A stretch of DNA of 64,000 nucleotides, taken from positions 17,608,001 through 17,672,000 of the forward strand of contig OZ004609.1 in the NCBI GenBank assembly GCA_963924565.1, read 5' to 3'. The DNA comes from Ascidiella aspersa. Lineage: Eukaryota. This document shows, piece by piece, positions 687 through 64,000 of this stretch. How positions within the stretch are numbered: the first letter of the stretch is position 1; the number at the start of each line of letters is the position of its first letter. Made by a program: the position numbers and the translations under genes. The notes below the pieces were generated by a model, which saw nothing but the letters and a program-made list of their open reading frames with translations, made no database searches and was not told the origin of the DNA.

Positions 687-45591
<44,905 letters not shown>

Positions 45592-47069
45592 TTTGAAGAT
45601 TTAATGCAAACAAATGCAGTATTTTTTCAAATGTAATAAACTTACACGACATTAAGTGCATGCACCCATACTAAAAATTAATACTGAAATAAAAACAATG
45701 TTTTTTTTAAAAAGTTAGGATCTGCATTATAACAAACATCCTTATATATATCATAATTGGCCAAAAAATCTGACTACTGTGCAAGGAAAAACTTCTACAA
45801 AGAAATATAAAAACTCTGCGCTGGTCTACAATCGTACCACATTCTCGCCCGGGTGTTTATATTGCTAACATTATTTGGGTTAGGTTGCTAGTTAGCATTA
45901 ATTAGAGTTTGGATGGGTCAAGTATTTATTATTAATATTAGGAACAAGTTATTAGACAGAATCGCCACGCAATTATTTATTTGATTTGAATTAGTTTTAA
46001 TTTTCCATATTTGCATTATTTTAAAAGATTTATTTCATAAATCTATGTAAATAGCATCAGGATACACATAGGTTATTTGGTGAGATCTATATTTACTCTC
46101 CCTTTTTTATTTCTTCCTTACAATTTTAATTTGCACAACTCGTTTCTTTACTGTAAAAAAAACAAAATGGTAGAATTCTAGACCAGTTTTAAAAATCAGG
46201 CAGTATAATGTTAAATGTGTCTAGAAACAATCTGAATTACAAAGCTTAAACACAAAATCAAACTCCTAATCCTAAATCCTTCGCTGTGATGTTGGAAAAT
46301 AAATGTATTATATGGCTCATAGAAATTCGAAACAAATAGGCTTGGTGTCGCCCTTGACCTCAGTCAACTTTGGAATAATTCATATATTATCAGTTTTTAA
46401 TGAAAGCAAAATTAATTCAGAACTAAAACATATTTTACATTTAACTTTATCGCATAATAAAAGCATATTTTTGATTCTTACAGACCACATTGATGACACC
46501 TTTTCAAGATATAGCAAAAACTGAGTAACAGTTCTTTCCTTTCAATAAATATGAATTTAACTTAGATATAAATTAATTGTATTTAAACCCATATAAAATG
46601 GCAAATATTCAAAGTTCAAACAATAAAATATTTTTGTACGTTTTCTGGTATTCCCGCTTTCAAACGATATCTTTGTCACGTGAGAGCATCCAATTGTGAC
46701 AATTAATCAGGTTGAAAGAAAAATCTCGAAACGAGGTTAGAAGTTAGAACTAATAAATGTCTACTAAGCTTCGGTGTTGGATTTCTTCCAGGGGCCAAAC
46801 GCGAAATTAAATATGCAATTTGTCGCGCCAAGCAGCACGGGGCAAAGTATGGAATTTTAAAATACATTGCTTGTTTCGAAAGAGACCATTAACCCGACTA
46901 AAATAGTTTAGGAAGTGGCTATTTACCAAAACTTAAATTCGAAGTACGGTACGGTAAACGATCCATTTTACATTTATGGAAGAATGAGCCGGTCTCCGAA
47001 GTACAAAATTCAAAGTTTGATAAATGACTGTAGAATTAGTTTGCAACTAAAACCAAGACGCCGGTTTAG

Positions 47070-47348
47070 AATTCGGCGCTCTTTCACTATTGTACGTAAA
47101 AATTAATAAAAAAAAAATTTTCTTCAAATGCCGTTTACCACAACACATATTGTTTGGGTTAGGGTGCGGGTTAGCGTTTGGGTGAGGGTGGGTCAAGTAA
47201 TATTATGTTTATTATTAATAATAACTTGACCCATCCTCACCCAAACGCTAACCCTAACCCAAACAATATGCGTTGTGGTATGCGATATTATTATTATTTT
47301 TTTCTGCATAACTTTTCACGTACAATAGTGAAAGAGCACCTAGAATTC
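47070..47348. repeat. Foldback (long inverted repeat) with TTAGGG-like motifs in the scrib-srsf7 spacer
   Basis: gctctttcactattgtacgt pairs with acgtacaatagtgaaagagc; inner arms taccacaac...gggtcaagt pair with acttgaccc...gttgtggta; related fragments at 45818-45940 and 47350-47612. Confidence 0.88.
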
Positions 47349-47772
47349 CACCACAATGTTGAAACAATTATTAAATTAACGCACAATATTTGGGTTGAGG
47401 TGTCGACTGTCGGTTAGTGTTTTAAGTATTATTATCTTTATTATTTCATAGTGCTGCTTTACCTACCCAAACACTAACCCAAATTATCTTCCCTGTGGTA
47501 GGATTTTAGACCAGTGCTTAATATTTATTTAACAATATTGTTTAACCTAACTAAACGCCAACCCACATCCTAACCCAAATAATGTTTATTGTGTTAAGAT
47601 ATTAGACCAGCGCCAAAGTTTTTCTACCCTTTTATGACGTTTAAAATTTGCACTAATGTTACCCGGCAAATAGCCTCTTCCAATAGGTTAAATTAATTTA
47701 CAGCATAGAATTTGCCTAGGGTGACACTTGAAGTGAGCGTGCAAAGCATATCAGCATAGTGAAACTATAGAC

Positions 47773-49010: not shown

Positions 49011-49204
49011 ATGTCCCATCGTGATACAAAGGTGTACGTCGGCAATCTTTCTTCCAGCACAACCAGAGGAGATCTGGAGTATGAGTTTGAATATTATGGG
49101 CGACTAGCAAATGTCTGGGTAGCCAAAAGCCCACCTGGCTTTGCTTATGTAGAATTTGATGATTATCGCGATGCAGAAGATGCGATAAAGGGTTTGGATG
49201 GGAG
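49011..49204 (+). CDS. srsf7: SRSF7-like exon 1 (RRM)
   Basis: [13 protein letters not shown]...GLDG-R, donor gtatgt. Confidence 0.95.
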
Positions 49205-52200
49205 GTATGTTTCATTGTATTCAAATTAAAAAACACTTAATTTAAGTTATTTGATGCAATGCCTAAAGTCCAAGTCAAGTCATTTGTCTAAATGACTCAA
49301 GTCATTTTCTAGCTCATAGAAATAAAAATACTCCAGTTAAGTTATTGTTTATGTGGCAAATATTAAAACTTACGACCTTGGCCACACTGCTCAATGCTCA
49401 TGCATGGGGGATATAGACCTCGCGTTTTAAACTTTTTAGAATTTAATGCCCCAAAGTTATGCCTGTGAATATTTAACATAATCCTTGTGCTTGCTTCATA
49501 TATCCAGCGCACACTAGTAAAAATATTAATACCTATATACTTGAATATTTATATTCAGTCATAGTTACCTCTAAAAGTCGACCTAACAGGTTCACATTTA
49601 ACCGATTTAACCTATTGAGGACAATTCAAAAAATCTTGCACTCTGTTCAAAAGAGTCATCATTCAAGTTTGATTTCAATTCGGAATTGGTGCTTCATTTA
49701 CAAATTCATAACTGCCCAAGTTGAAAAAAAATACCTTTTTTGCATATAAAGTGCATAAAGACCAATTTTATTATGGACATTAGATTTTCACACAACCTTG
49801 TGTTAATCAACACTTACCTTAATAAAACAATATGAAGTACATTACATATTTTCTTAGTGATATTTTACACAAAATAATAAAGATTCAGCTGACAAGAATT
49901 GAATGATCACACAAATGTTTTTTTTAAATGAGTAATGCCATGATAACACTGGAGCCTTAAAAATAAGACTACTTTATATATGTAAGCTAAATTGTGCATT
50001 CCAAACTTGGGAAATAGCAATATATATATATATAAACTTAAACAATGGTTTACGTGCGACCATACCAGGGTTGTTCCTAAGAAAAAAATTACACTCGCCA
50101 GCGTGGCGAGCGGCTATCAATCAGCACTCGCCCAGATGAAATAACACTCGCCAAATTTGTTGGCACGCTGTCTACAAATAACTGCCCTATCGCGGTCATT
50201 TCTTGGGTTGTCGTTAACCTGTCTTATGGTTTCTATATGTAAACATTAGTTTTTATAAAATTCTGATCGTTTATTTCCCTACATGGATAAACAAATTAAT
50301 GACCCATAAGCAGTTTACTCTTAAAACAATGTTTTTAGCCGAGATATTTTGTACAGTCTTTAATGAAAAAAAGAACACTAACAATTTAGTAGCCACTGCC
50401 TGCCTGTTTTCCCTTGTTTTTAAATGCTTGCGCTCTTTTTTTCGTATTCAGGTTTTTCTGTGCTTAAAGGACGTTTCACCGCAGGTTGCTTTGCTTCACA
50501 AACAAAACGCCACATTTTGCCTAACACTATATAGTTACTGGTTGAACAGCAAGTAATCACAAAATAATTATAAATTTACAACTAAACCATTCTTTCGCAC
50601 AGTTAACAACCATATACCAAAGGTTCTGTGCTGTGCGACGTGGGTTGTTTCAATTTTCCAAGGGCGGCCGCAATGGTTTCGATTTGTATCTAAACATAAT
50701 CGCGATATAAAATATTTACAGACAAGTATTTTTTAATCTTTGGCTTGGTTGTCCGTTATGAACTTAAGAGATCGCAACAATATACTTACAGAGACTTATT
50801 GCTGATTCTCAGCTGTAGTTACGATATTTTAAAATACCGTAGTGCTCAGTAGGCCATTCCGGTCCCTCAAAACATCTTAAAAATCACTGCTTACAAACAA
50901 TATTATACATTTGCATTCAAACTTATTGTTACCAAGAACTGCAGCAATTGCTTATTGTTTTCTTAACAAACAATTCAGAAAAGTAAACTTTTTATCGCTG
51001 GGTACATCGCAGGTAAAGTAAACTTTTCCAAAGGCGTCAACGACTGGCTTAAACATTTAAAAATTAACAACGTTCAAGTTAAACAATAAACTTTATAACT
51101 ATTTACCACTGCAGCAATAACGTCTTTGATTGTTTACTGGTAAACGATTTTTTAAACGAGACAATGAGTCTTTATTATGATCATACAACGGGACAAAGAA
51201 TCTTTATTAAGAGCTTCAAAGGTGACTCCGATTAACCTTATTATGTGTGCAGTGTTGAATGTATTTGCTCCTTAGTGGTTAACAAAATAACCCGCGCTAA
51301 GTAATATTTCGGTAAGAAGTGGTGCAAAATTTCTCGCCAGTCGTGCGTGTGGGTGTCAATCAGCACTCGTCCGGAGTGACTTGCACTCGCATTGGCGAGT
51401 GGGCGAGTGCTTAAGCCCAACCCTGCATACACAGACGTAAACAATGGTTTACGTGCAACCATACACCTGTTGGCTAAATGGCATACGAATTGTTTACCAT
51501 ATTAATATTAAGAAATTTCTACTCTATATAAATAGTTGAGCAATTTAAGAATCCTTGTGAAAAAAATTGCATGTATAGGTTTGACCGAAAACAGCAATAT
51601 TACTTATTCTATTGCCTCATGTTAAGGCATAAATTTGTTTTGCATTTTTTTATGTATTTTTGAATTTTCTATTTGTGTGGTATACAAAGTTATTAGTAAG
51701 TTGGTAAATGCATTATATCCATAGCACTTTTTTATTAAGAGACTAACATGGAGCCACAACATAATAGGATAGCACCAAAAAAGTTATTTAAATACCTTAC
51801 CTCGGGCTTGTGGCAAGTAGCATTTTAACACATGTCGGATATTCCCTGCTTTACAAGATACACCTTTATACAAAATTCTGAAGATACTTTGTTAGATAAA
51901 TATGCTGCTACTAGGCATAGTATACTTAAAAGAAGCTCTTCTGGTGCAAAGTTGGAGAAAATAAATAAGTACCCAAAGAGCTTATTTTATTGTATATCGC
52001 ATTAAAGCTTTTTTTGTCTACTTTAGAATTTATATATTGTATATGTATTCCTTTTTAGAGAGTTGCATGGTCGACGCATCCGTGTTGAATGGTCCCATGG
52101 TGGCCCAAGAGGAGGACGGGAATTTGGTGAACGAGGCAGGGAGCGTGATAGGGGTTCCAGGAGATCCTTTCATCCTAATGACCGCTGCTATAACTGTGGA

Positions 52201-53501
52201 GAAACTGGCCACTATGCATATGACTGTGACCTTTATCATAGGAGGAATTCACGAGGAGGGTATGATAGTTTTATGACATATAAATGTAAATGTTCTTTGC
52301 TAAACGGTATTTCGAATAATAATTATACCAGTAATTGTTAAAAAAGTTATAAACATTTTTTTGCAAACTTTCTATCCTTTAATAGTAGAAAGTAGACCAT
52401 TTTGCTCAACATGTAAAATTAAAATAGGTGCATCTAAAATTAAATGTGGTTCTTGCTGCTTAATAACTGTTGAAAATATATTTAGAAAGTTGCATCGTGT
52501 ATAGTATGATTTTAAGAAAAATACTGTAGGTAATAATTTTGCAAAAATTTGACTTTGCCTTTGACATTAACAAAAGAAACAAAACACTGACAGGCTTGCC
52601 CTAATGTCATTCAGGGTATAGAATTTGAGATCTGCGATATTGAGATTGGAGACTCTTTTGGAGAACTAGAGATTCTCTCCGATGATTGAGAAACTTGAGA
52701 CTGCTGACTGGCTTACTCCTGAATAGAAATAGATATATTCATTAAGTTGAACAACATACTTTTTGTAATTTAAAATATTTATTTCCTATATCATTACTTT
52801 GCTCCCAAGGCAATTAAGCACTTATGCAATGAGAAATGCAAAACTTTAAATAAGAATTTTTCACCTAAAGTGGTTTTATCCAATGCAACAGTTTTAATAA
52901 TTTCGTATTAAGTAAACAACTAACAAGTATTTCATGGTCACAATGTCTGACATTGATGAATATTTTCAGAAGTGATAGACGTAGAAGTCGGCGATCGAAC
53001 TCTCGTTCTCGATCAAGATCACGCTCACACAAAAGAAGAAGATCCAGAAGTTATTCGCGTTCCAAGAGTCGATCTCCGAGACGCAGAAGTGCATCAAGAA
53101 GCCGCTCTCGGTACGTGTGCGCTTATAATAATTCAATTAAAAAACTATAGTGACTATGTTTATGCCTCCTGCTATTAAAATTACGAAATCTTGCAAAATA
53201 AGGCTTTAATATTTCAAAGATTGTTGCGAAACTGTCATAGCATACCATTACGATAAACATTTTTATTTATGATAGTATACCTTAAATGAAACTTCACCCA
53301 TTAGTTCTTATGTTTGGAAATTTAATTTAATTATATTTTTCAAGGAGTGTGAAATCGCGGTCCCGTTCCAAATCTCGAGACAGGCGTTCACGTTCGGATT
53401 CGCGGGGTCGCAAATCGGGAAGCGAGAAGCGTTCTGCAGTAAACGGTGATAGTGTCAACAAACGAAGTGTTTCAAAGTCCCGTTCCAGATCCAGGTCTTA
53501 A
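49011..53501 (+). CDS. srsf7: SR splicing factor, SRSF7/9G8 type (RRM + CCHC zinc knuckle + RS domain); exons 49011-49204, 52059-52259, 52970-53110, 53345-53501
   Basis: RRM with KVYVGNL and PPGFAYVEF; knuckle [16 protein letters not shown]; RS repeats; all junctions GT-AG, phase 2; TAA at 53499-53501. Confidence 0.95.
50066..51425. mobile_element. Non-autonomous DNA transposon in SRSF7-like intron 1, 1360 bp
   Basis: TIR CAGGGTTG..TAAG / TTAAGCCCAACCCTG; subterminal CACTCGCC/GGCGAG repeats at both ends; 5-bp flank match CATAC. Confidence 0.85.
52059..52259 (+). CDS. srsf7: SRSF7-like exon 2 (RRM end and zinc knuckle)
   Basis: [14 protein letters not shown]...[14 protein letters not shown]. 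Confidence 0.95.
52615..52911 (+). other. Candidate poison exon or alternative 3' splice site in the intron after the zinc-knuckle exon
   Basis: Branch-like cctaat plus tcattcag acceptor; in-frame TAG two codons in; GAGA-rich body; 3' end uncertain. Confidence 0.5.
52970..53110 (+). CDS. srsf7: SRSF7-like exon 3 (RS domain)
   Basis: RS dipeptide repeats, ttcag acceptor, gtacgt donor. Confidence 0.93.
53345..53501 (+). CDS. srsf7: SRSF7-like exon 4 (RS domain to stop)
   Basis: [17 protein letters not shown]...SRSRSRS*. Confidence 0.9.
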
Positions 53502-53699
53502 AGATTCACATTTAAATATGATAACGTCGCTCTATGGCTTTGTCAGGACTCTATTTGTCAATAGCGCTGTGGTTGTTTTTATCCACTGTTCAATTGTTTT
53601 CAATAGAGAGTCGTTTGTCAATCTTGCACAATGTTTGCGACAAATGGTTAGGTCTGTATGTTTTTAAAATCGTTGTAATGTAAAAAGGCAATATCTGTA

Positions 53700-53705
53700 A
53701 ATAAA
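53700..53705 (+). terminator. Probable polyadenylation signal of the SRSF7-like gene
   Basis: AATAAA about 200 nt after the stop, followed by GT-rich gtggtgtttgtgtgg. Confidence 0.6.
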
Positions 53706-54164
53706 CTTTCTGATTTGTAAAGTGGTGTTTGTGTGGAGCAAGTTTTATGTCATCAAAAATGCCATAACAAGGTAATCATAAAAATTGGTTTTAAAGTTAA
53801 ACCGGGGAAATTTTCAGAGACGACGTCTCAAAATTAAGTCGTAAAACAAGTAACTTAACAAATCTGCTGCTCCCGAACATGTGCGCAAAAACTTAACAAA
53901 CAAAATTGTTGTCATGCTAAGATTTCGCACTTGCCCGCTCCCTAATGCAAATGTGGTCATGTTTTCCACGAAAACAGAAACATAGGAGAAAATGAATAAA
54001 AACTTTTGATCAGTAAACAAGTTTTTTAATACGTACAAGGTGCACTTTTTATTTACATTGATTATAATAATGTTTGTTTTAGAGTTTTTGTTGTATACGT
54101 CCACTTGTTAGGGATGTTCAAAGTAGAATATCGGATCATTAGATTCGAATCCAATTTTTGTTTT

Positions 54165-54390
54165 TGTGGGTTAGGGTTGAAATTATTAGGTAAGTTAGTG
54201 ATATACTCAGGGTTGTGGTTTGGTTAGGTGAAAGTATTGATTAGGCCTGATTCTGGTCATTTAGGTCTTATTCCGACGGGTTTAGGACTCATTCCGATTT
54301 ATACAATACTACGACTTTAGGTATTAGTCCGATTTTGGTCATATTCTGGCAGTTGATGTTGTTCTTATCTCGGTTTTATGGGTGGATTCC
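54165..54390. mobile_element. Partial copy of the 36592-37241 MULE-type family (right arm)
   Basis: Collinear similarity to 36995-37241 (ggtcttattccgacg...tcggttttatgggtggattcc). Confidence 0.7.
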
Positions 54391-54703
54391 TATTGGGCTA
54401 GTCAATCAACTGTTATTGGACGAGCGACCGACGTGCAATGCCAGGTGCAGAGATTTCGCAATTTCCTTCAAATGCGTAAAGTTGCAAAAGAAACATTCCA
54501 TTGTAAAACGTGCTGGACAAAATGGGCTACAGGCTTTTTCCAAGGTCAACCCCGAACTCAAAGCGAGGAATATATGCACGAATGGAAATATTTGTCGAAC
54601 TTACGAACAACGTAATTGTTAGGTATTATGGTAGCGCATTATTGACAGTAACTCGGTATTCTTATAAATAATTTGACCGGCTTATTAACGAATCCATTTA
54701 GAG

Positions 54704-55370
54704 CAGTGTTTTTAACCTGGGTTTGATCTAACCCCTGGGGTCGAACTGTTTCAGGGGTTTAACGGGAACGTCCTCTGAAACATTATTACACAGCTTACTT
54801 AAACCTATATCACAATTTGTTTTTGAAATCTGCCATGGTCATGCCAAAACTATGTTTTTGCCAACCTATGTATAAATATAATTTTTTCACTCTGTGCGAA
54901 CTTTCGATCTTTTTTTCATGTTTTTGCCTATTTTAAGGGAATTTATTCAGTCCCTTAGAGCTTATATATTATGCAACTCATAAAACTGACGATGCAAATT
55001 GTGTTAAGTTATACTATGAATGCCATTATTTCAAATTAAATTTTAACCTTGTTATAATTATCCGTTGAACTAAATGTTTTGTCAATTTAACCCAAATAAA
55101 CGCAAAATTATTATTATGCCAAGTTTCAGCTGCATTTTTACGTATGGGTTCGCTAGAGAACAATAGGTATTTTCCAGATTAATTGTTGTATGGCAGCACA
55201 TCTGACATACCTTTATCCTTAAAAACCTTCAACTTTCCCCAAAACAAAATCCTGGATCTTCTCCGTTTTGGAAAGAAAGAAAATGGATACTGAGCAAAAG
55301 TTTGGGGTTCTGTGAAAGCTGGCAGAATAACATAGGGGCTCGACTGGGTAGCATAGGTAAACAACCACTG
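54704..55370. mobile_element. hAT MITE, 667 bp
   Basis: TIR CAGTGTTTTTAACC / GGTAAACAACCACTG; TSD atttagag/gtttagag. Confidence 0.8.
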
Positions 55371-57653
55371 GTTTAGAGTAAAGTAAAACTAAAACGCAAC
55401 AGTATAGGCTGCCTTGAAAAGAACTCAATTTGTGAAGAGTTCGTTGTGTTCTTACTATATGGGCAAAAGTTAAGTTGGGGCAGAAACCTGCTTTTTATAT
55501 CATGTTTAAGTGTTGTTTTGTGTAGTTGTGCACGAAAAGTTAACGAACTGCTTTACATGGTGTTTGTTCATAATTCACTGGGGAACACAATTTTTGTTGA
55601 CTTCGATTTAACAATTGTTAACTAACTTTTGGGCGCTGAATCTAATAATGACATCAAATTTTCTCTATCAGGTCAAATTTGTGAGCTAGGCACCAATAGG
55701 GGGGGGGGGTGAAGTGCCCTTTTCATGAAAAATTATATATTGTTTTCACAACGTTAAATATTATGCGACGGAAATCATAAAAAAATGACATGGTTGACAT
55801 TTGTTAAAACATTTTTGGTACCATTTTAAGCCAATCTAGAGAGCGTGGCCGCAAGAAATTTTCCGCGGGAGTGCCCCCGGAGTCCCCCCAATAATTCGGA
55901 TCGCTACGCTCGCCTGCGGTCTATGTTGCCCTTAACCAAAAAAGTCGCCCCCTTGCCCTGAAATCGATCCGGCGTCCCTGGTCCGAGCTTTATGTACATC
56001 TATGTCAACAAGTGGCTCATGTAGAACAATGGGATGACCAGGTTTAAGGTCAGATCTGTGAGGCCAGTTCTTCTCCACACAGTGCTGATCTCGTGATCTG
56101 CTCTCGCACATACACAAATAGCAGGGGAACTTTGTGTGTCCATGTTGCGCATTTAACGAGCTTTTTAAACGTGTATCGACCTAAATAAATTCCTGTGCCT
56201 TTTTTCCTTAATAATTTGGCCCTTCTTGTATATGACTTACTATATGATTAGCTTGTGCATTCCTATTACGTATCCAAAAGCAATACGGCTAAATTCGTAA
56301 AAACTAGCTTATTTTGGATATATGCTGTAGAGCAAAAACTTGACGTGGTAGAGGAAAACTGGCGGTGTTTTTGAAATCAGCCTAAATCAAGTGCAAAATC
56401 AAAGTCAACAATTTTTTTTGCAAAATTGTTCCCCAGTGAATGGAGTGATTGACTATTTAATTTTTCGATTACTACCTGGGCGCCGAGTATCAGGAGACAT
56501 CGCAGAACGTCTCAATATAGTTTATTACAAATGGCACATCTGTATAGGCTACTATAGAGCAGGCCAGGTGAGTTTTTGTTGACGTAGGCTACTACTCAAT
56601 AATTGGTAAAAAAAAATTAGTAAAAATTACAACCAATTTTAACGGACCATTTCTGAGGTTTTCAGCCAATCTGTGTTAACTACAAAACAAAAAACTAACA
56701 AAAATGCAGTATGCAAGTTTTAAAAACAGCGTGCCAATATTTTTATTCAGCGCTCAATAACTTATTACTTGTGCCTGGTTTTATTCTTGCGATGCACAAG
56801 TACCACAAAATTCCCAAAATAATAAACTGTGTTATTTCTTTAATTTAATTGTTGTGTTATGCAGTATTTGTAAAATATTTAACTGAAATTTCTGAAAAGT
56901 TGTCTAAATTCGGTAGTTTCCTAAAGATTTTGTTACGTCACAAGCGACTTGAAACAATGGCTTTTGCCAGGGCAAGTTTTTTTTACATTTTCTTACATAT
57001 TCGTTCAGTGTCTTTTGTCGGGAACGACAGAAATTTATGGCAGATGCGAAAGCTATGTTTTTTATTCGAATCCACTCGAAACTGTTTGCGCCCTTCAATG
57101 GGTTGTTCGGCAATACGTTCGAACCAAAGCAGCCTGCGAATGATTTCCAGGTTCTGCAGAAATGTTTCTATTCAATGGTCCCGGACTCATCGGAAAAACT
57201 GTAGACCAACCTAGCTTTTAACATCGTTATGTTGTTGGTCAGTGTTGTAGTGTTCATTGCACTCTTTGAGGGTGGATGTGGATGTGTTCTCGTACAAAGG
57301 TAAATATATTTCAACTTAACGCAAACGTTATATATATTTGCATGTTTTTGTTGCGATAGCCATGTAATTTCACATAATCTACACTTAAGTTTGATCAGCG
57401 ATATTTTAGTTACAATTCGTTGTTTAGGTTTGTATCCTTTCTACGAAGAATTGTGCCTCTCGGAAACGGTTCACTTAAAAAAGACTTAAAGGTAGAGCAT
57501 AAGTTACACCAGTGTTTCAGATGTTTGATCGAATTAGCTGCTTTACCTTAAAGTTTCTTTAAAAAAGAGTATGATTGTAGGATGCGGCTAAACTTTTGAA
57601 TGAGATGTTTGCTAGCTATAGCCTTCTGAAAATAAACGTTATCTACTATAGGA

Positions 57654-58175
57654 CAGTGGTCGGCAAAATGTGGGCCGCAGAGTAAAGATGTCGATCGCGC
57701 AGCGTATGCGGCCGCTTGCGCGGTTTGGTCAAATTACCGCACAGCGCCGCGTAATAATTAAGTCTAAGCATTTTGCCGCGACAATTAAGTAAAAACACAA
57801 CTTTGTCGTGCCTCATACCGCGAATGTTGTTGTTTTAGTTAATTGAAGTGAAATAGGAAGCAGTTTACACATGGATGTTTCATCAATAAAAAGTAAGCTT
57901 TTGTCCGTACCTTTATGTTTGAACTATCTTTTTAGGTGTTTGTAATGGTGTAGGAATATATTGCTTATAGTGTTCAAATTTTGCAGTTCAGCGCTGCTTA
58001 AGATTTCGAAAATAATTTGCGGTGCAGCGCAGCTTGCGAACAACTTATTAAATTGCGGGACGGGCAGCGAACACAAATTTTAGATTTTCACCATCTATAC
58101 CGCAGAGTTTTTTAAGTGGGCCGCGGGCTGTTTTTTAATTTTTTGTTTCATCATGTAGTTGTGGGCCGCGTGAAT
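57654..58175. mobile_element. hAT-type MITE left portion (right TIR not found)
   Basis: CAGTGGTCGGCAAA terminus after ctatagga; repeated GTGGGCCGC subterminal motifs. Confidence 0.6.
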
Positions 58176-58514
58176 GCTGTGCATATATTGTATTGTTATT
58201 GGCCAAAGAGATTATTATAATCTCTTTGATTTGGCTGAGTGTTGCTAACAATTTGTCTCACCGTGGTTCAGACCCGCGTGGTAAACTTTGAGGGCCTGTC
58301 AACTATATTTTTCAACTTTAATTATATGTAAACGCAATTTTTTTCGCGAATCGTGCGTATATTATCGTTTTGTAGTATGTTTTACATTATTGCGTGCAGT
58401 GTTTTCGGCATCAAGGCGCCATGTCAAATTTCACCCTTTCTCGGTGTCAACAGCCTGTGTGGACTTAGACTCCCTTCAAAATACAATTTTTACCTTCAAC
58501 ATTTACCATAGTTT

Positions 58515-58599
58515 ACGGTGGTCCAAACCTAGGCCCGCGGGCTACATGTGGTGCAAGAAATATTGTGGCCCTCAATGCTGTCAACCTTGGATCACCCTG
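58515..58599. mobile_element. Short hAT-type MITE remnant; same family end at about 48815-48858
   Basis: aaatattgtggccc...ctgtcaaccttgga...cctg shared between the two sites. Confidence 0.6.
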
Positions 58600-58796
58600 A
58601 CCTACTTAATGTATTCTTTTTATTCAAATTTGTAATATTGCTATTGTATCGTAAGTAGCACTTATCCAAATTTTACTACAAGATTAACATAATGTAGCCT
58701 ATTGCTTATTTGTTTCGTTCGAACTTTTTGCGTGATTGCGGCTGCCGCCATTCAGCTGTGGAGATGATATAGTGTTAATCTTTTATGCGCCTAAGG

Positions 58797-60466
58797 CAGT
58801 GTTTCCCAACCTTTTTTATACTAGTGCCCCCTTGGGCTTCATATTATTTCATATCGCCCCCCCCCCCCCTAAATTATTGACGTATAGGTAGATAACTTAA
58901 AAAATTAAGGCATATAATTTACATACAACAATAATTGCGTTAAGGTATACACTGGTGCAGTCTGCGCTACCGCAATTAAAATGGCTGACGATTCAATATA
59001 ATTTTGTTTCATGCATATACTAAAACATAACACAACACTGCGGATAATTTAACTTGATAATGCAATCTAGTTTTATCGTTAGCTCAACATAAAAGATTGC
59101 TTGCGCTGGTCTAGAATATTACTACGCAATCTTTTTTCACTTGCGGCACACCAACAGAGAGAAAACAATAAAGCGAATGATGATTGAGCGCGCCGGAGGC
59201 TCCGAAAATTTAATCTATTTAATCTATTTGTTTTCTGATATCGCGGATTTGAAGACCCTCTAAAATTTCTTAAGCCGGCCAAAGTTCTACAAAACTGTAG
59301 CCTACCCCCTTGTAATAGCTGATTATTAGGGCAAATATTTTTTGACTTGTCAAAAGAAGTCAAAATCTACACGTTAGGTCAAAATTTGTCAAATTTTTTT
59401 TATCAAAAGTCGTTTAAAAAAAAAATAGTTTTGATTTATATTCAAAGTCTTTTCAACCGTATTAATCTTCATTAGACCAATATACGTTATAAAAAACGTG
59501 TGAATAACGACGCCTAAGTTATTTAAATCAATTTATTTCTAACAGATAAACATTTTGTCAAAACAAATTATTTTTAGGTCAAAATTTGACAATTTTTTTA
59601 TTTTTCAGGTCAAAATTTCTTAATTTTTAGGTCAAAAAATATTCGCCCAACTGATTATATAACAGAAGGCTTTTAATAGCATTCGAAAAATGAAACCTGG
59701 CCCTGGTGTTTTTTTATTTTTTGGCATAATTTATTATTCGAAACAGCTGCCAAGGCTAGTTGCACAATAATGCCAATAGTATATTTACGACTGTTGTATT
59801 TTATGGGTTTTGAGCGTATGGTTAATCTTGACATTGGTGTAAAATTTCGAATATTTGTTGTCAATGAAAAAAATATTTTGATATTTGATTTCCGGTGATA
59901 GAAGATAACAGGTTTCAAAAAGTTTTAAATATTATGGAAAGTTCAGAAAATTACACCTGGGGATTATCGCATAATATTAAAACGGCCTTGATATGCTATA
60001 CCTACGTTAATTCAATTGATTATTAAACAGTACCCTTACAAATAACAAGTAACACAACCTCCGGGAACGTCGCGGCATATCTGACATGGTTACGCGGCAC
60101 ATCTGTTGCGGAGCACTGGAAATTTCTGCACCAAGACTTTAAATAAAGAAAACAATTTTGCGGCGTATAAAATGGTGAAACGCAACAACAACCAACAACC
60201 TTACAAGAAAGCCAATTATTACGTCAGAAGTTAACAATGGTTGGAAAACTTCTTCAAGTTCGCAGTACGAAAGTTGCCATTTAAGCCTAAATGTTACATA
60301 GGGTATTACAGTGCTGTTTGTTACGATTTATTTAAACTGTTTATAAAATGTTACGTAACGCCCCTTTATGTGCGTTCAGCGCCCCCCAAATAAGACAAAA
60401 ACTTAAAACGCCCCCTTGTAACTTGCCAAAGCCCACGGGCGGTACCGCCCACGTTGGGAACCTCTG
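58797..60466. mobile_element. hAT (Buster/Charlie-type) non-autonomous element, 1670 bp, containing nested insertions
   Basis: TIR CAGTGTTTCCCAAC / GTTGGGAACCTCTG; TSD gcctaagg/gtctaagg; GCCCCC subterminal motifs. Confidence 0.82.
59327..59650. mobile_element. Nested hAT (Ac-type) MITE, 324 bp
   Basis: 20-bp TIR TAGGGCAAATATTTTTTGAC / GTCAAAAAATATTCGCCCAA; perfect 8-bp TSD CTGATTAT; internal GTCAAAA repeats. Confidence 0.9.
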
Positions 60467-61526
60467 GTCTAAGGTAAACGTTTCGCCATCTGGATTTTAG
60501 CTTCATGCTTGCGCACGAGTTCGTTTAATACAAAAGGTAGAAAAAAAAAGTTTCATGACGTACCTTTATGACGTCATTCTAATGCCTCCGACTCAAAACA
60601 AATATCTTGGATCCGCCCTGTTTTGTAGTTGTTTTACGTAGTGGGCCTTCAGTGGCTTCAAAATGAGTATTTTGGGCAGCGACAAACCAACTGTAGGCCT
60701 GCTAGGATATACGAAACTAAACGCAAAATCATAATGTCGACTTGTAAAAAGTGATAGAAAAAAATGTAATGTCGTGCTTCTGTCTTGAATACCTATTCAT
60801 ATTTTAAAAGTCTTGTTTTAATGACAAAATTTACTGCGATTTAATATGTTGTTTTGGAAATTGCGATATTTATATACGAGGCAAACATTCATTTTAATTT
60901 TAAAGAACTATAACCCTTGATAACATTAGAATAATAAAGCATTTCAATACAGCACTGATCAGAAGTATCGTTTTAAGCCTTAAGGTTAATGTTTGAAGTT
61001 CGAACTAAAGTATAATATTACTTTAAATTCTTAGAAATTATGAAAAAATTGACTTGGAATCTAACAAAAAATGGATGTTTTAGTTTATTGTTTCCAACCG
61101 TGAGTTTAGAACCTAACAGTTAGCGTGGCACATGTATAGATGGTTTACCATTTTTTCCCCTACGTTTCTGCGTAAGCATTTGCTATGACTAGACTTTCAA
61201 TGTAGGAATACCATTTTTTGGTTTAATTTAATTGGTCTAATTAAGTTTGTTGATTTGTACCTACCATATTTTTCCACAAAGATTTCAAGCAACCCAAACA
61301 ACGATAGGATATTGACAATTTGCATTCCGGCAAGAAAGAAATTCGAATATATAGGATTGCGAGGTAATTGCGTGGGGATTTTATTTTAATTTTTGCATAA
61401 GTCATAGGTGTAAACCTTAAATAAATATATCTGTGTGTATTTACAGGTATATCAAATGTCACCGTGAAGTCCATTGACAAACCTGCTCTGAAGTTACCAT
61501 TCGAACCGTTCCTGTTACCTGCTGCC

Positions 61527-63956
61527 ATGGTTGTGTTTCTTCAAACAGGAATCCCGACCAAAGGACCACGCGTGCGTTTGATCATCGCCCCCGACATGTT
61601 TGAAATATTCCTTGCTCACTTTGAAAGGAACGTCTCGACCAAGGCTAATGCTCTTCTAACTAAACTGAGGCAGCGTAGGGCACAGGATATCTTAATCCCA
61701 TCACCGGATAGCAGCCAAAATATCCAGGCCGTATCTAAAACACCGCAGCAGGTCTTCATTCACTGCACGATTCAACCTTACAAATCGTCCATGAAACGTC
61801 CAATTACCCAAACCTGCTCAACCCAGACGGTCAACGCGATAAGGACACACGTCTCTATTCAGACTAAATCGTTGAAATCCCTATCCGTCGCCAGTCAAAC
61901 CTTGCAGTTTGTTGCAACGCCAATTCCAACGCAGACCATCAGAAAATGTTTTATTCCCACCCGCATCCAAACCGTAAATCCGATTCTCAAGTAAATTCAA
62001 ACCCAAACTTCCCAATCCGTTGTTAAACCCGCATCCACACAGACTTCTACTTCGAAAACCGCCCCTACTTCCACCCAAACTGGTGGACAGGTTTCGAAAA
62101 GTTTAAAGTCACTTGTTGTGTCCACTTCAACTCAGACCTTCCAACATCAAATGATCTCAGCGTCAATGTCTACACAGACTTCCAAAAGTGCTGCTATGAC
62201 TCTTTACACCCAGACTGTAGAACTTGACAGCTCGCCTGTAAGCACACAAACAACAACTCAAACTCAGCCGAGTGATCAACCTACATCGGACACTGGAACC
62301 CTAAAAAAACGACAAAGCGCAACCACATTCACTCAAACCATTTTTGGAACTGTTCGAATGTTGCCGGCGCGAAAACCCAGGTCGAGTTTTAACAAAGGAA
62401 CACAAACTGCTACTCTTCCAGCAAGGGCTGGTCAAAGAAGTTCGAAAAAAGCAAATAAAACTGATAACTTTTTCCGTAGTAGCAAAACGACTGCGCCCAG
62501 TACTTCGTAAGTCCCATATTGTCGTCACGAATATTGGCTTCAGGAATGGTCCAAAAGGAAGCACCATTTTGTAAAAATTCCAAAATTCAGCAATGACGAT
62601 ATTATTAAAGCAATTACCAAATTGCCGATTGAGGAAAGTGTTAAAACAACTCCCACCGAAGAAGATTGGGAGCGCTACTACCAAGAGGAGTTGGCGAAAC
62701 AGGCGAAAGAGGACGCACAACGACTGGCAAAGAGGGCAGATTGCAAAAGACAGGACATAAATTTATTTCGTTCAAATCCCGGAGACACAACGAGCAAAGA
62801 TATACTGCTTGTGGTTGATGACATTATGAAAGCTATTAATCAACTACCAAAGGAGAAAAGCGTTCGCCAGTCTCCCACTGAAGAAGACTGGGAGCGGTAC
62901 TACCAAGAGGAGTTGGTGGAACAGGCGAAAGAGGATGCACAGCGGCTGGCGAAGAAGGCAAGATCTAAAAAATCCACAGAAGATAGATCTATTGTTTCGT
63001 CAAATCTTGCGGAGACAGCCAAGACAAAAAAACTTGCTGCTGCTGGATCTCACTCCAAACTGTGGACACCAAACACAATTAAGAGAGTGATAAAAGTGAG
63101 TCTCAGTTGTCAGCTGCCAGCTCTCACAAAGCACCCAGTGGTTCTACTTCTAAACTTTGTCCACCAACTTGCACCACACAAAGTTGATTCTTCCTCGAAA
63201 CCTGGTGCGCCAATCAATCACAAGGCTCAAATTGTGGTAAAGAACCAGTCAAAACTGCGACAGCCAAGCAAGTTAGAATGATCGGTGTCCAAGCGTTGTG
63301 GACCCAATCATCAGATTACACCGAAAGACTTGTGTGCTGCGCTTAAAATGGTGCCCAAAATTACGCCGACTCCAATTTCTGAGTCTCCAACTTTCCATGA
63401 TATACCAAAACTGGATAAGAAAAAAGTGGAAGATTGGATGGCAAACATGCAAAGAGCCTTGACAAGGGAGAAGTTGTTCAAGATCCAGGATGACCCTGAG
63501 CATCGCTGCACCTCATCCTCGGTCGTCGGCAAGATGAGGAAGCCGACAAGGATGCGGAAGAGAATCTTGAAAGAGGTTGATTTCCTGGATAAAATAAAGG
63601 AACTGGCGAAACCTTTTAACCTTGTCCCGTGCGTTTTCGGTGGTGCACGGCGATTAGGGAAAATAAAGGTAAAACATTCACTCATTAGTGCTAATTCAAT
63701 ATTGTATGGCATTAAACTCTTCTTTGATTTTCAGTCAGACGATGTCAGCTTTTTCAATCTGGTGCCACAACTGCTGGATTTTGTTGACGAGTTTACAGAC
63801 GACCTGCCACTGATTACAAACGAAGATATCCGTCAGTTGTGCGGTCGAACCCCGCACCTATACAGGTTGACTGACCAAGAGGAACAGAAGGTGGAAGCTT
63901 GGCTGCACACTTGCAACATCCCCAACCAGTTGCAAGTCAATCCACTCTTGTTTTGA
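61527..63956 (+). pseudogene. Single ~810-codon frame of unknown family with TQT-motif array and internal duplication, interrupted by three in-frame stops
   Basis: ORFs 61464, 62118, 62622 and 63285 share one frame and the gaps between them translate without further stops; GCCATGG start context at 61527; stops at 61992, 62508 and 63279. Confidence 0.7.
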
Positions 63957-64000
63957 GTGATCTTGAGATATTTCTCTAAAGACAATTTGATCACACGGAT

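Follow-up and report, generated by a model that had tools for sequence, protein, structure and literature searches.

An ascidian multicopy gene family with a periodic array of predicted LC8-binding motifs and a putative membrane anchor

Introduction

LC8 binds ligands through a motif of 8–10 residues in which a Gln anchor is flanked by Thr, as outlined in excerpts of PMC12057147 and PMC6607443. Several proteins carry such motifs in series. According to excerpts of PMC12803091, linker L2 of KANK1 contains 15 or more weak sites for LC8, separated by linkers of 3–4 residues, binds cooperatively and forms a rod bridging a gap beside the membrane; its single sites score low in LC8Pred, and isolated peptides do not bind, while the array binds at under 1 micromolar. 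In yeast Nup159, tandem QT sites with linkers of 4–5 residues take up five LC8 dimers as a visible linear array (parts of PMC5963919 and PMC12803091). ASCIZ/ATMIN has many TQT motifs in a disordered region, 11 in human and 7 in Drosophila (PMC5963919, in part); it also has a zinc-finger domain, and its linkers are uneven, its complexes of low occupancy and not stiffened into a rod (parts of PMC5963919 and PMC12803091). In African swine fever virus (ASFV), the transmembrane protein p54 has one 13-residue LC8-binding domain (PMC9950752, in part).

Here we describe an array of TQT-type motifs in a 64,000-nucleotide stretch of Ascidiella aspersa contig OZ004609.1 (the window). In site count, spacing and weak contexts, the array resembles KANK1 as depicted in the source cited. 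KANK1 sites are mostly non-canonical, whereas those of the ascidian array are canonical xQT with a strict period. No sequence similarity was found between KANK1 and the ascidian gene, which, unlike KANK1, is multicopy and has a predicted membrane segment of its own. Nup159, a nucleoporin, is described in these sources with five strong sites, compared with the approximately 14 mostly weak sites predicted in the ascidian array, and here too no similarity was found. Relative to ASCIZ, the ascidian gene lacks a zinc finger and has uniform linkers. The likeness to ASFV p54, as far as the excerpted source goes, lies in a membrane segment and LC8 binding, both of which are predictions for the ascidian gene. 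Proteins of Sireviruses, which are retrotransposons, reportedly bind LC8; neither they nor ASFV p54 showed homology to the ascidian gene, whose introns appear to be spliceosomal. Judged from sequence, the gene would have a geometry like that of KANK1 and Nup159 while being homologous to neither, nor to ASCIZ or ASFV p54. Multivalent LC8 clients are already known; what is new is an orphan family in many copies, in which the canonical array keeps a strict period and a membrane anchor is predicted as well.

A periodic array of xQT motifs

The original prediction had counted 13 TQT motifs plus IQT and SQT variants in about 210 residues, and this count was exact; the variants number 3 and 1, respectively. 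We read the array in the + frame 61425–63956, through its stops; 14 of the 17 anchors do not overlap one another. When the 210-residue stretch was shuffled by residue 100,000 times, the number of TQT averaged 1.13 (sd 1.02) with a maximum of 8, compared with the 13 observed. The six-frame TQT total of the window was 33, of which 13 lay inside the array. Ser, Thr and Gln together made up 101 of the 210 residues. Thr followed 17 of the 25 Gln residues in the array, and the residue at −1 of these was T, I or S. Ser or Thr preceded 16 of the 25, and 14 of those 16 (S/T)Q pairs were then followed by T.

The claim that the array is not a simple tandem repeat was correct, and Tandem Repeats Finder reported no array here. 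What the earlier account did not contain is a hidden 36-nt period under the array, with nucleotide autocorrelation peaks at 72 and 36. Eight anchors, two of them IQT, fell in an exact 12-residue register (Q codons 61824–62076), and three further anchors followed at 12-residue steps (62175–62247). An 8-residue site plus a 4-residue linker would give this period. Eight of the 16 gaps between anchors equaled 12, a number reached by none of 200,000 random placements (maximum 7).

Protein-level selection, which had been suggested, was also supported for the anchors in the 8 in-register units. Bases 1 and 2 of the Q and +1 T codons were invariant, while their third bases were at background, matching at 0.32–0.43 against an average of 0.32 for non-anchor codons; because the units were chosen by their QT, the anchor invariance is partly by construction, which does not apply to the fixed spacing or to the saturation at third positions. 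An old tandem expansion that has retained the anchor alone would look like this array. One contig set had a net insertion of 36 nt at 61854, exactly one period, and family copies seem to differ by whole array units.

Gene structure and predicted protein

We infer that the array sits in the last visible exon of a four-exon gene of 972 codons (57037–63956), which may continue past the end of the window (Table 1). All three modelled introns are GT-AG and one frame is kept throughout, with four stops within the 972 codons. For exon 1, RNA depth was 62 at 57202 and 0 at 57412; it was also 0 at 56961, and the upstream ATG at 56957 was set aside as a start on this ground. Exon 2 is the weakest part of the gene model, and would account for a sense RNA depth of 7.2 in its bin (implied exon depth 41). 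RNA depth was 0 at 57911, then 53 at 61307 and 46 at 61348 within exon 3, with values of 4 (61192) and 5 (61385) on either side, and 48 at 61449. Over exon 4, sense depth was 33–72 versus 0.3–5.4 for antisense. The exon depths implied by the model were similar, at 55, 41 and 57. Among the 15 joints listed, of 511, there were no RNA splice joints; the exon joins are those that the model predicts, and so is the connection of the hydrophobic exon with the array. An alternative donor at 57238, with exon 2 skipped, would keep the frame and shorten the hydrophobic segment, and the RNA bin depths fit it less well than the main model.

Table 1. Coordinates of features in the window
Feature	Position	Strand	Remarks
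Scribble-like gene (name presumed)	29187–44788	−	five LRR exons 40695–44788, PDZ exon near 29187
SRSF7-like gene	49011–53501	+	RRM, zinc knuckle, RS tail; expressed; upstream of array gene
Chapaev3-like non-autonomous element	55576–56438		TIRs starting CACTGGGGAACA
Repeated unit carrying gene	56850–64000	+	from DNA depth; right edge outside window
Predicted exon 1	57037–57299	+	from first in-frame ATG; GT donor at 57300
Predicted exon 2	57428–57491	+	64 nt, basic residues; AG/GT signals, frame kept
Nested MITE insertion, intron 2	58797–60467		flanked by near-identical 8-bp duplication
Predicted exon 3	61282–61363	+	AG/GT signals, in frame
Exon 4	61447–63956	+	one frame; stops 61992, 62508, 63279
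xQT array, predicted LC8 sites	61806–62408	+	17 anchors (13 TQT, 3 IQT, 1 SQT)
Helical repeat copy 1	62595–62738	+	48 codons; model residues 520–567
Helical repeat copy 2	62817–62960	+	222 nt downstream of copy 1; model residues 594–641
C-terminal segment, unknown fold	63282–63956	+	no family or homologue found

The modelled protein begins with a segment of 58 residues, followed by a strongly hydrophobic stretch encoded in exon 1 (model residues 59–77, Kyte-Doolittle mean 2.9). The charges that flank this stretch, 5 basic and 2 acidic in the next 30 residues and 2 of each in the preceding 20, favor a cytosolic C-terminal part, and we read it as a probable membrane anchor with the array in the cytosol. 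If translation started at the ATG at 57229, the stretch would resemble a signal peptide, which would put the array on the extracellular side. About 180 residues of unknown fold lie between the hydrophobic stretch and the array in the model, and the in-register and later anchors occupy model residues ~263–456.

Two helical repeats follow the array. Their copies differed by a single base in 19 codons, with 12 silent and 7 replacement differences, a silent share well above the neutral share of 0.27 (p about 0.001); by this comparison of sequences, the repeats are under purifying selection. A single-sequence structure model rendered them as long helices without packing (mean pLDDT 75, pTM 0.26). 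The model of the C-terminal segment was unusable (pLDDT 41.5).

Decay of the window copy

The stop at 61992, through which the original prediction had read, is real, and the same frame is stopped at two more positions in exon 4 (Table 1). Over its 843 codons, the + frame 61425–63956 had 3 stops versus approximately 45 expected from base composition, and the other five frames over the same stretch had 28–51. A fourth in-frame stop of the gene model lies at 57202 in exon 1. The copy in the window is a pseudogene that carries nested MITEs besides its four in-frame stops. Among reads from the family, a sense codon was present at 61992 in 90 of 100 (DNA) and 61 of 83 (RNA), and at 57202 in 134 of 134 (DNA) and 60 of 62 (RNA); this check covers those two stops of the four, and is based on 40 listed differences of 1,937.

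Four stops correspond to ~94 neutral substitutions, or 3.2% of sites. This decay of about 3% is close to the divergence of 3.4% implied by a word share of 0.34 with the best-matching sequence set. Among the indels listed for the long exon, those at 62249 and 63170 were of three bases. A variable stretch between copies was marked by an indel of one base at 62468 together with an insertion at 62528, and depth was low, with indels between copies, over 62440–62530. Nine of the 21 exonic differences listed were silent (p 0.03–0.09, for rows selected by the tool), a result that counts against our preferred reading.

Copy number and transcription

Four sets of reads or contigs were compared over 52900–64000, with the SRSF7-like gene as single-copy and strand control and an RNA run chosen by species label. 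The left edge of the repeated unit lies at about 56840–56870, as estimated from bin depth rather than mapped. Raw DNA read depth was 83–107 over 61433–64000, versus 2.75–4.7 for two bins in SRSF7 and 6 for a single unique position. The ratio of gene to single-copy depth, on a baseline of those two bins and one position, was ~16–35 in raw DNA reads and 25–32 in contigs, where summed depth is not equal to a copy number. The excess in read depth indicates ~16–35 related copies, which are ~87% identical. The seven longest contigs listed across the gene were 86–89% identical to the window copy, the family also occurs under a second organism label, and no second copy lies elsewhere within the 64-kb window.

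The RNA was stranded, with the gene and SRSF7 read in the same direction (mean depth 47 for sense versus 2.3 for antisense, 20:1). Summed over the family, RNA depth resembled that of SRSF7; the signal stems from the family as a whole and is not assignable to the window copy.

A joint of 58788–60467, seen in 19 DNA reads and 3 contigs, is the empty site of the intron 2 MITE in other copies. DNA read joints also skip 57676–58139 and 60918–61161 in the same intron. These skipping joints show insertions private to the window copy or its lineage, and through them the upstream exons are connected with the long exon in other copies.

Searches for relatives

The family had been proposed to be lineage-specific and of unknown affiliation, which was borne out in that no homologue emerged from protein, family, structure or viral searches. 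A word-indexed search with the read-through frame yielded 0 of 7,998 candidates at E ≤ 0.001, a full HMMER search of 1.84 billion cluster representatives yielded none, and a search of longer proteins with the latter half of the array gave 0 of 1,517 at E ≤ 10. With the C-terminal piece as query, a protein atlas returned no usable match. Among solved structures (PDB sequences), the best two matches had E values of 0.49 and 1.9, and Pfam and PHROG gave only weak matches or matches below cut-off, on helical stretches. Viral contigs, queried with three of the four stop-free pieces of exon 4, gave no relative among 4, 7 and 27 candidate stretches, respectively. The large homologue searches covered exon 4, and exon 1 was scanned against Pfam. 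The protein collections searched include Ciona and Clavelina proteins, in which the family was unmatched. A metagenome match (1 of 361 stretches; 39-bit, 28%, seeded by one 8-residue word) was rejected as a chance hit on a bacterial protein, with the TQT array absent and no other part matching; that protein is presumably a hybrid histidine kinase, matched in its receiver region.

Pfam found no C2H2 fingers in any piece, in agreement with the original reading. The view that the gene is not ASCIZ stands as well: zinc-finger families were absent from the exon pieces upstream of the array, and there was no ASCIZ match. KANK proteins carry ankyrin repeats, and neither such repeats nor homology to KANK was found in the visible part by Pfam or HMMER. 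Across the visible part, the ORFs scanned between 56850 and 63953 contained no gag or pol Pfam families. With regard to a Polinton or endogenous DNA virus, viral contigs gave no relative for the three exon 4 pieces queried, and no PHROG family was convincing. We found no prior description of such an ascidian LC8/TQT gene in a literature search that was thin in subscription journals. As a separate observation, LC8 genes of eukaryotic type were present in five prokaryote genome records, with three of the genes on a single contig, a sign that these assemblies are contaminated with eukaryotic DNA.

Genomic neighborhood

The array gene lies downstream of the SRSF7-like gene in a MITE-rich stretch. 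The RRM exon of that neighbor was 89% identical in Ciona savignyi, 80% in Clavelina and 60–70% in other matches. Further upstream, the minus strand carries a gene with LRR and PDZ exons that we take to be Scribble-like; a 24-bp tandem repeat at 30760–33983 (134 copies, 92% match), open in several frames, lies between its PDZ and LRR exons. Longer orphan-looking ORFs occur on the minus strand at 4679–5428, 6666–7127 and 9404–10291, with no Pfam match. Several inverted repeats with TTAGGG-like arms at 45867–47586 are probably nested MITEs. On the minus strand, 55932–56180 is presumably a transposase-like remnant, for which Pfam gave no match. The TIRs of the element at 55576–56438 resemble the Chapaev3 ends listed in PMC3014272.

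Discussion

We graded the context of each site in the array, from position −5 to +2, by the position rules given in the text of PMC6607443, of which we used excerpts. Five of the 17 sites were free of penalty, and 12 had at least one unfavorable feature: Pro at −4 in five, Pro at −3 in one, an aromatic residue at −2 in two and a hydrophobic residue at +2 in seven. No site had the favored Asp at −4 or Pro, Asp or Glu at +2. These contexts are those of a decayed copy, and intact copies may differ. The penalties count against strong single sites, yet they match the KANK1 pattern.

We estimate at about 60% the probability that the family is a lineage-restricted multivalent LC8 client, probably membrane-anchored, which would form a rod through many weak sites. 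LC8 binding and rod formation are both predicted here from the motifs and their arrangement. The KANK1- and Nup159-like geometry, together with the match in weak sites, favors a membrane-tethered rod zipped by LC8. It seems about equally probable that such a rod would set the helical and C-terminal parts off the membrane. In this reading, the protein of intact copies is likely anchored in a membrane and has ~14 predicted LC8 sites in a row on its cytosolic side, and stacked LC8 dimers would zip two chains together. Sites that are individually weak would bind cooperatively and the presumably disordered stretch would stiffen to a rod, as in KANK1 and Nup159. The adjoining long helices may extend or pair the chains, and the C-terminal segment would thereby be held at a set distance from the membrane.

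The array could instead be an SQ/TQ cluster for phosphorylation by ATM/ATR, or a Ser/Thr-rich extracellular stalk, and not a row of LC8 sites. The S or T before 16 of the 25 Q, and for the stalk the possible signal-peptide reading from 57229, would suit this alternative. Several sites also have a hydrophobic residue three places after Thr, which is a feature of FHA-binding sites. An SQ/TQ cluster domain consists of clustered (S/T)Q with no fixed +1 residue, and kinase sites and mucin stalks need neither an invariant +1 Thr nor a fixed 12-residue period. Here the +1 residue is mostly T, only 2 of 16 (S/T)Q lack a following T, and IQT, which cannot be phosphorylated at −1 and fits an LC8 anchor, stands at 2 of 8 register positions. 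The invariant +1 Thr and the 12-residue period are left unaccounted for by either version, and we consider this alternative unlikely. That the motifs arose by chance in noncoding, low-complexity DNA is scarcely credible: a frame interrupted by stops and the lack of homologues in our searches would be expected in that case, while the shuffle tests, the deficit of stops (p about 1e-16), the bias to silent sites, the stranded RNA and the sense codons in other copies all speak for a coding sequence. The multivalent LC8 client remains our preferred reading.

As for the origin of the family, for which the original prediction had offered derivation from a virus or transposon as one option, we lean slightly toward a mobile element over a host multigene family. 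In the former case, to which we give roughly even odds, the repeated unit would be a DNA transposon of large size or else an endogenous virus, the gene would be an accessory one and the replication or transposase genes would lie past 64000. Depth rises from near single-copy to more than 130 within ~150–200 bp upstream of the transcript, and is greater in the 5′ part (134–173) than in the body (83–107), as if there were extra terminal fragments. The copy is also isolated among MITEs and the Chapaev3-like element, and it is unmatched in protein collections, an absence that repeat-masking before annotation would also yield. Use of LC8 has precedents in ASFV p54 (PMC9950752, in part) and, going by the title of Havecker 2005, in Sireviruses. 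Against a mobile origin, the 7 kb of the unit that lie inside the window showed no domain of a transposase, reverse transcriptase, integrase or capsid and no target duplication, viral contigs gave no relative for the pieces queried and the left edge lacks a recognized terminal repeat; host genes, moreover, more typically have three spliceosomal introns together with a membrane segment. The same ordinary exon-intron structure suits a fast-evolving host family whose members are born and die, as might happen in gametes or ciliated cells, with the window copy as a dead one. This reading, which we rate at slightly less than even, also agrees with copies 86–89% identical to the window copy, with a summed RNA depth like that of SRSF7 and with the presence of the family under a second organism label. 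It is less easily squared with the lack of a second copy elsewhere in the window, with a left edge that is sharp and near the transcript start, and with the absence of any trace among other ascidians' proteins.

It is possible, although we regard it as doubtful, that unrecognized ascidian mobile elements, active or recently so, encode a membrane-anchored protein that recruits at least a dozen host LC8 dimers. In Drosophila, LC8 reportedly dimerizes the piRNA silencing complex (PMC7861614, PMC7919418). The LC8 ladder of a mobile element might serve as a rigid spacer for transport or assembly of the element, or might soak up LC8 like a sponge and so deplete a hub that transposon silencing needs. 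We know of no ascidian equivalent of the LC8-dimerized piRNA complex.

The LC8 clients of highest occupancy described in the sources used here are ASCIZ, with 11 sites, and KANK1, with at least 15 (parts of PMC5963919 and PMC12803091). A family with ~14 predicted sites at a 12-residue period would offer a natural series relating LC8 site number and linker length to rod length and cooperativity. If the family is mobile, it would be a case in which a selfish element evolves a trap of high valency for a hub protein of its host. Should it instead belong to the host, then a large expressed family of ascidian genes would be missing from current protein collections.
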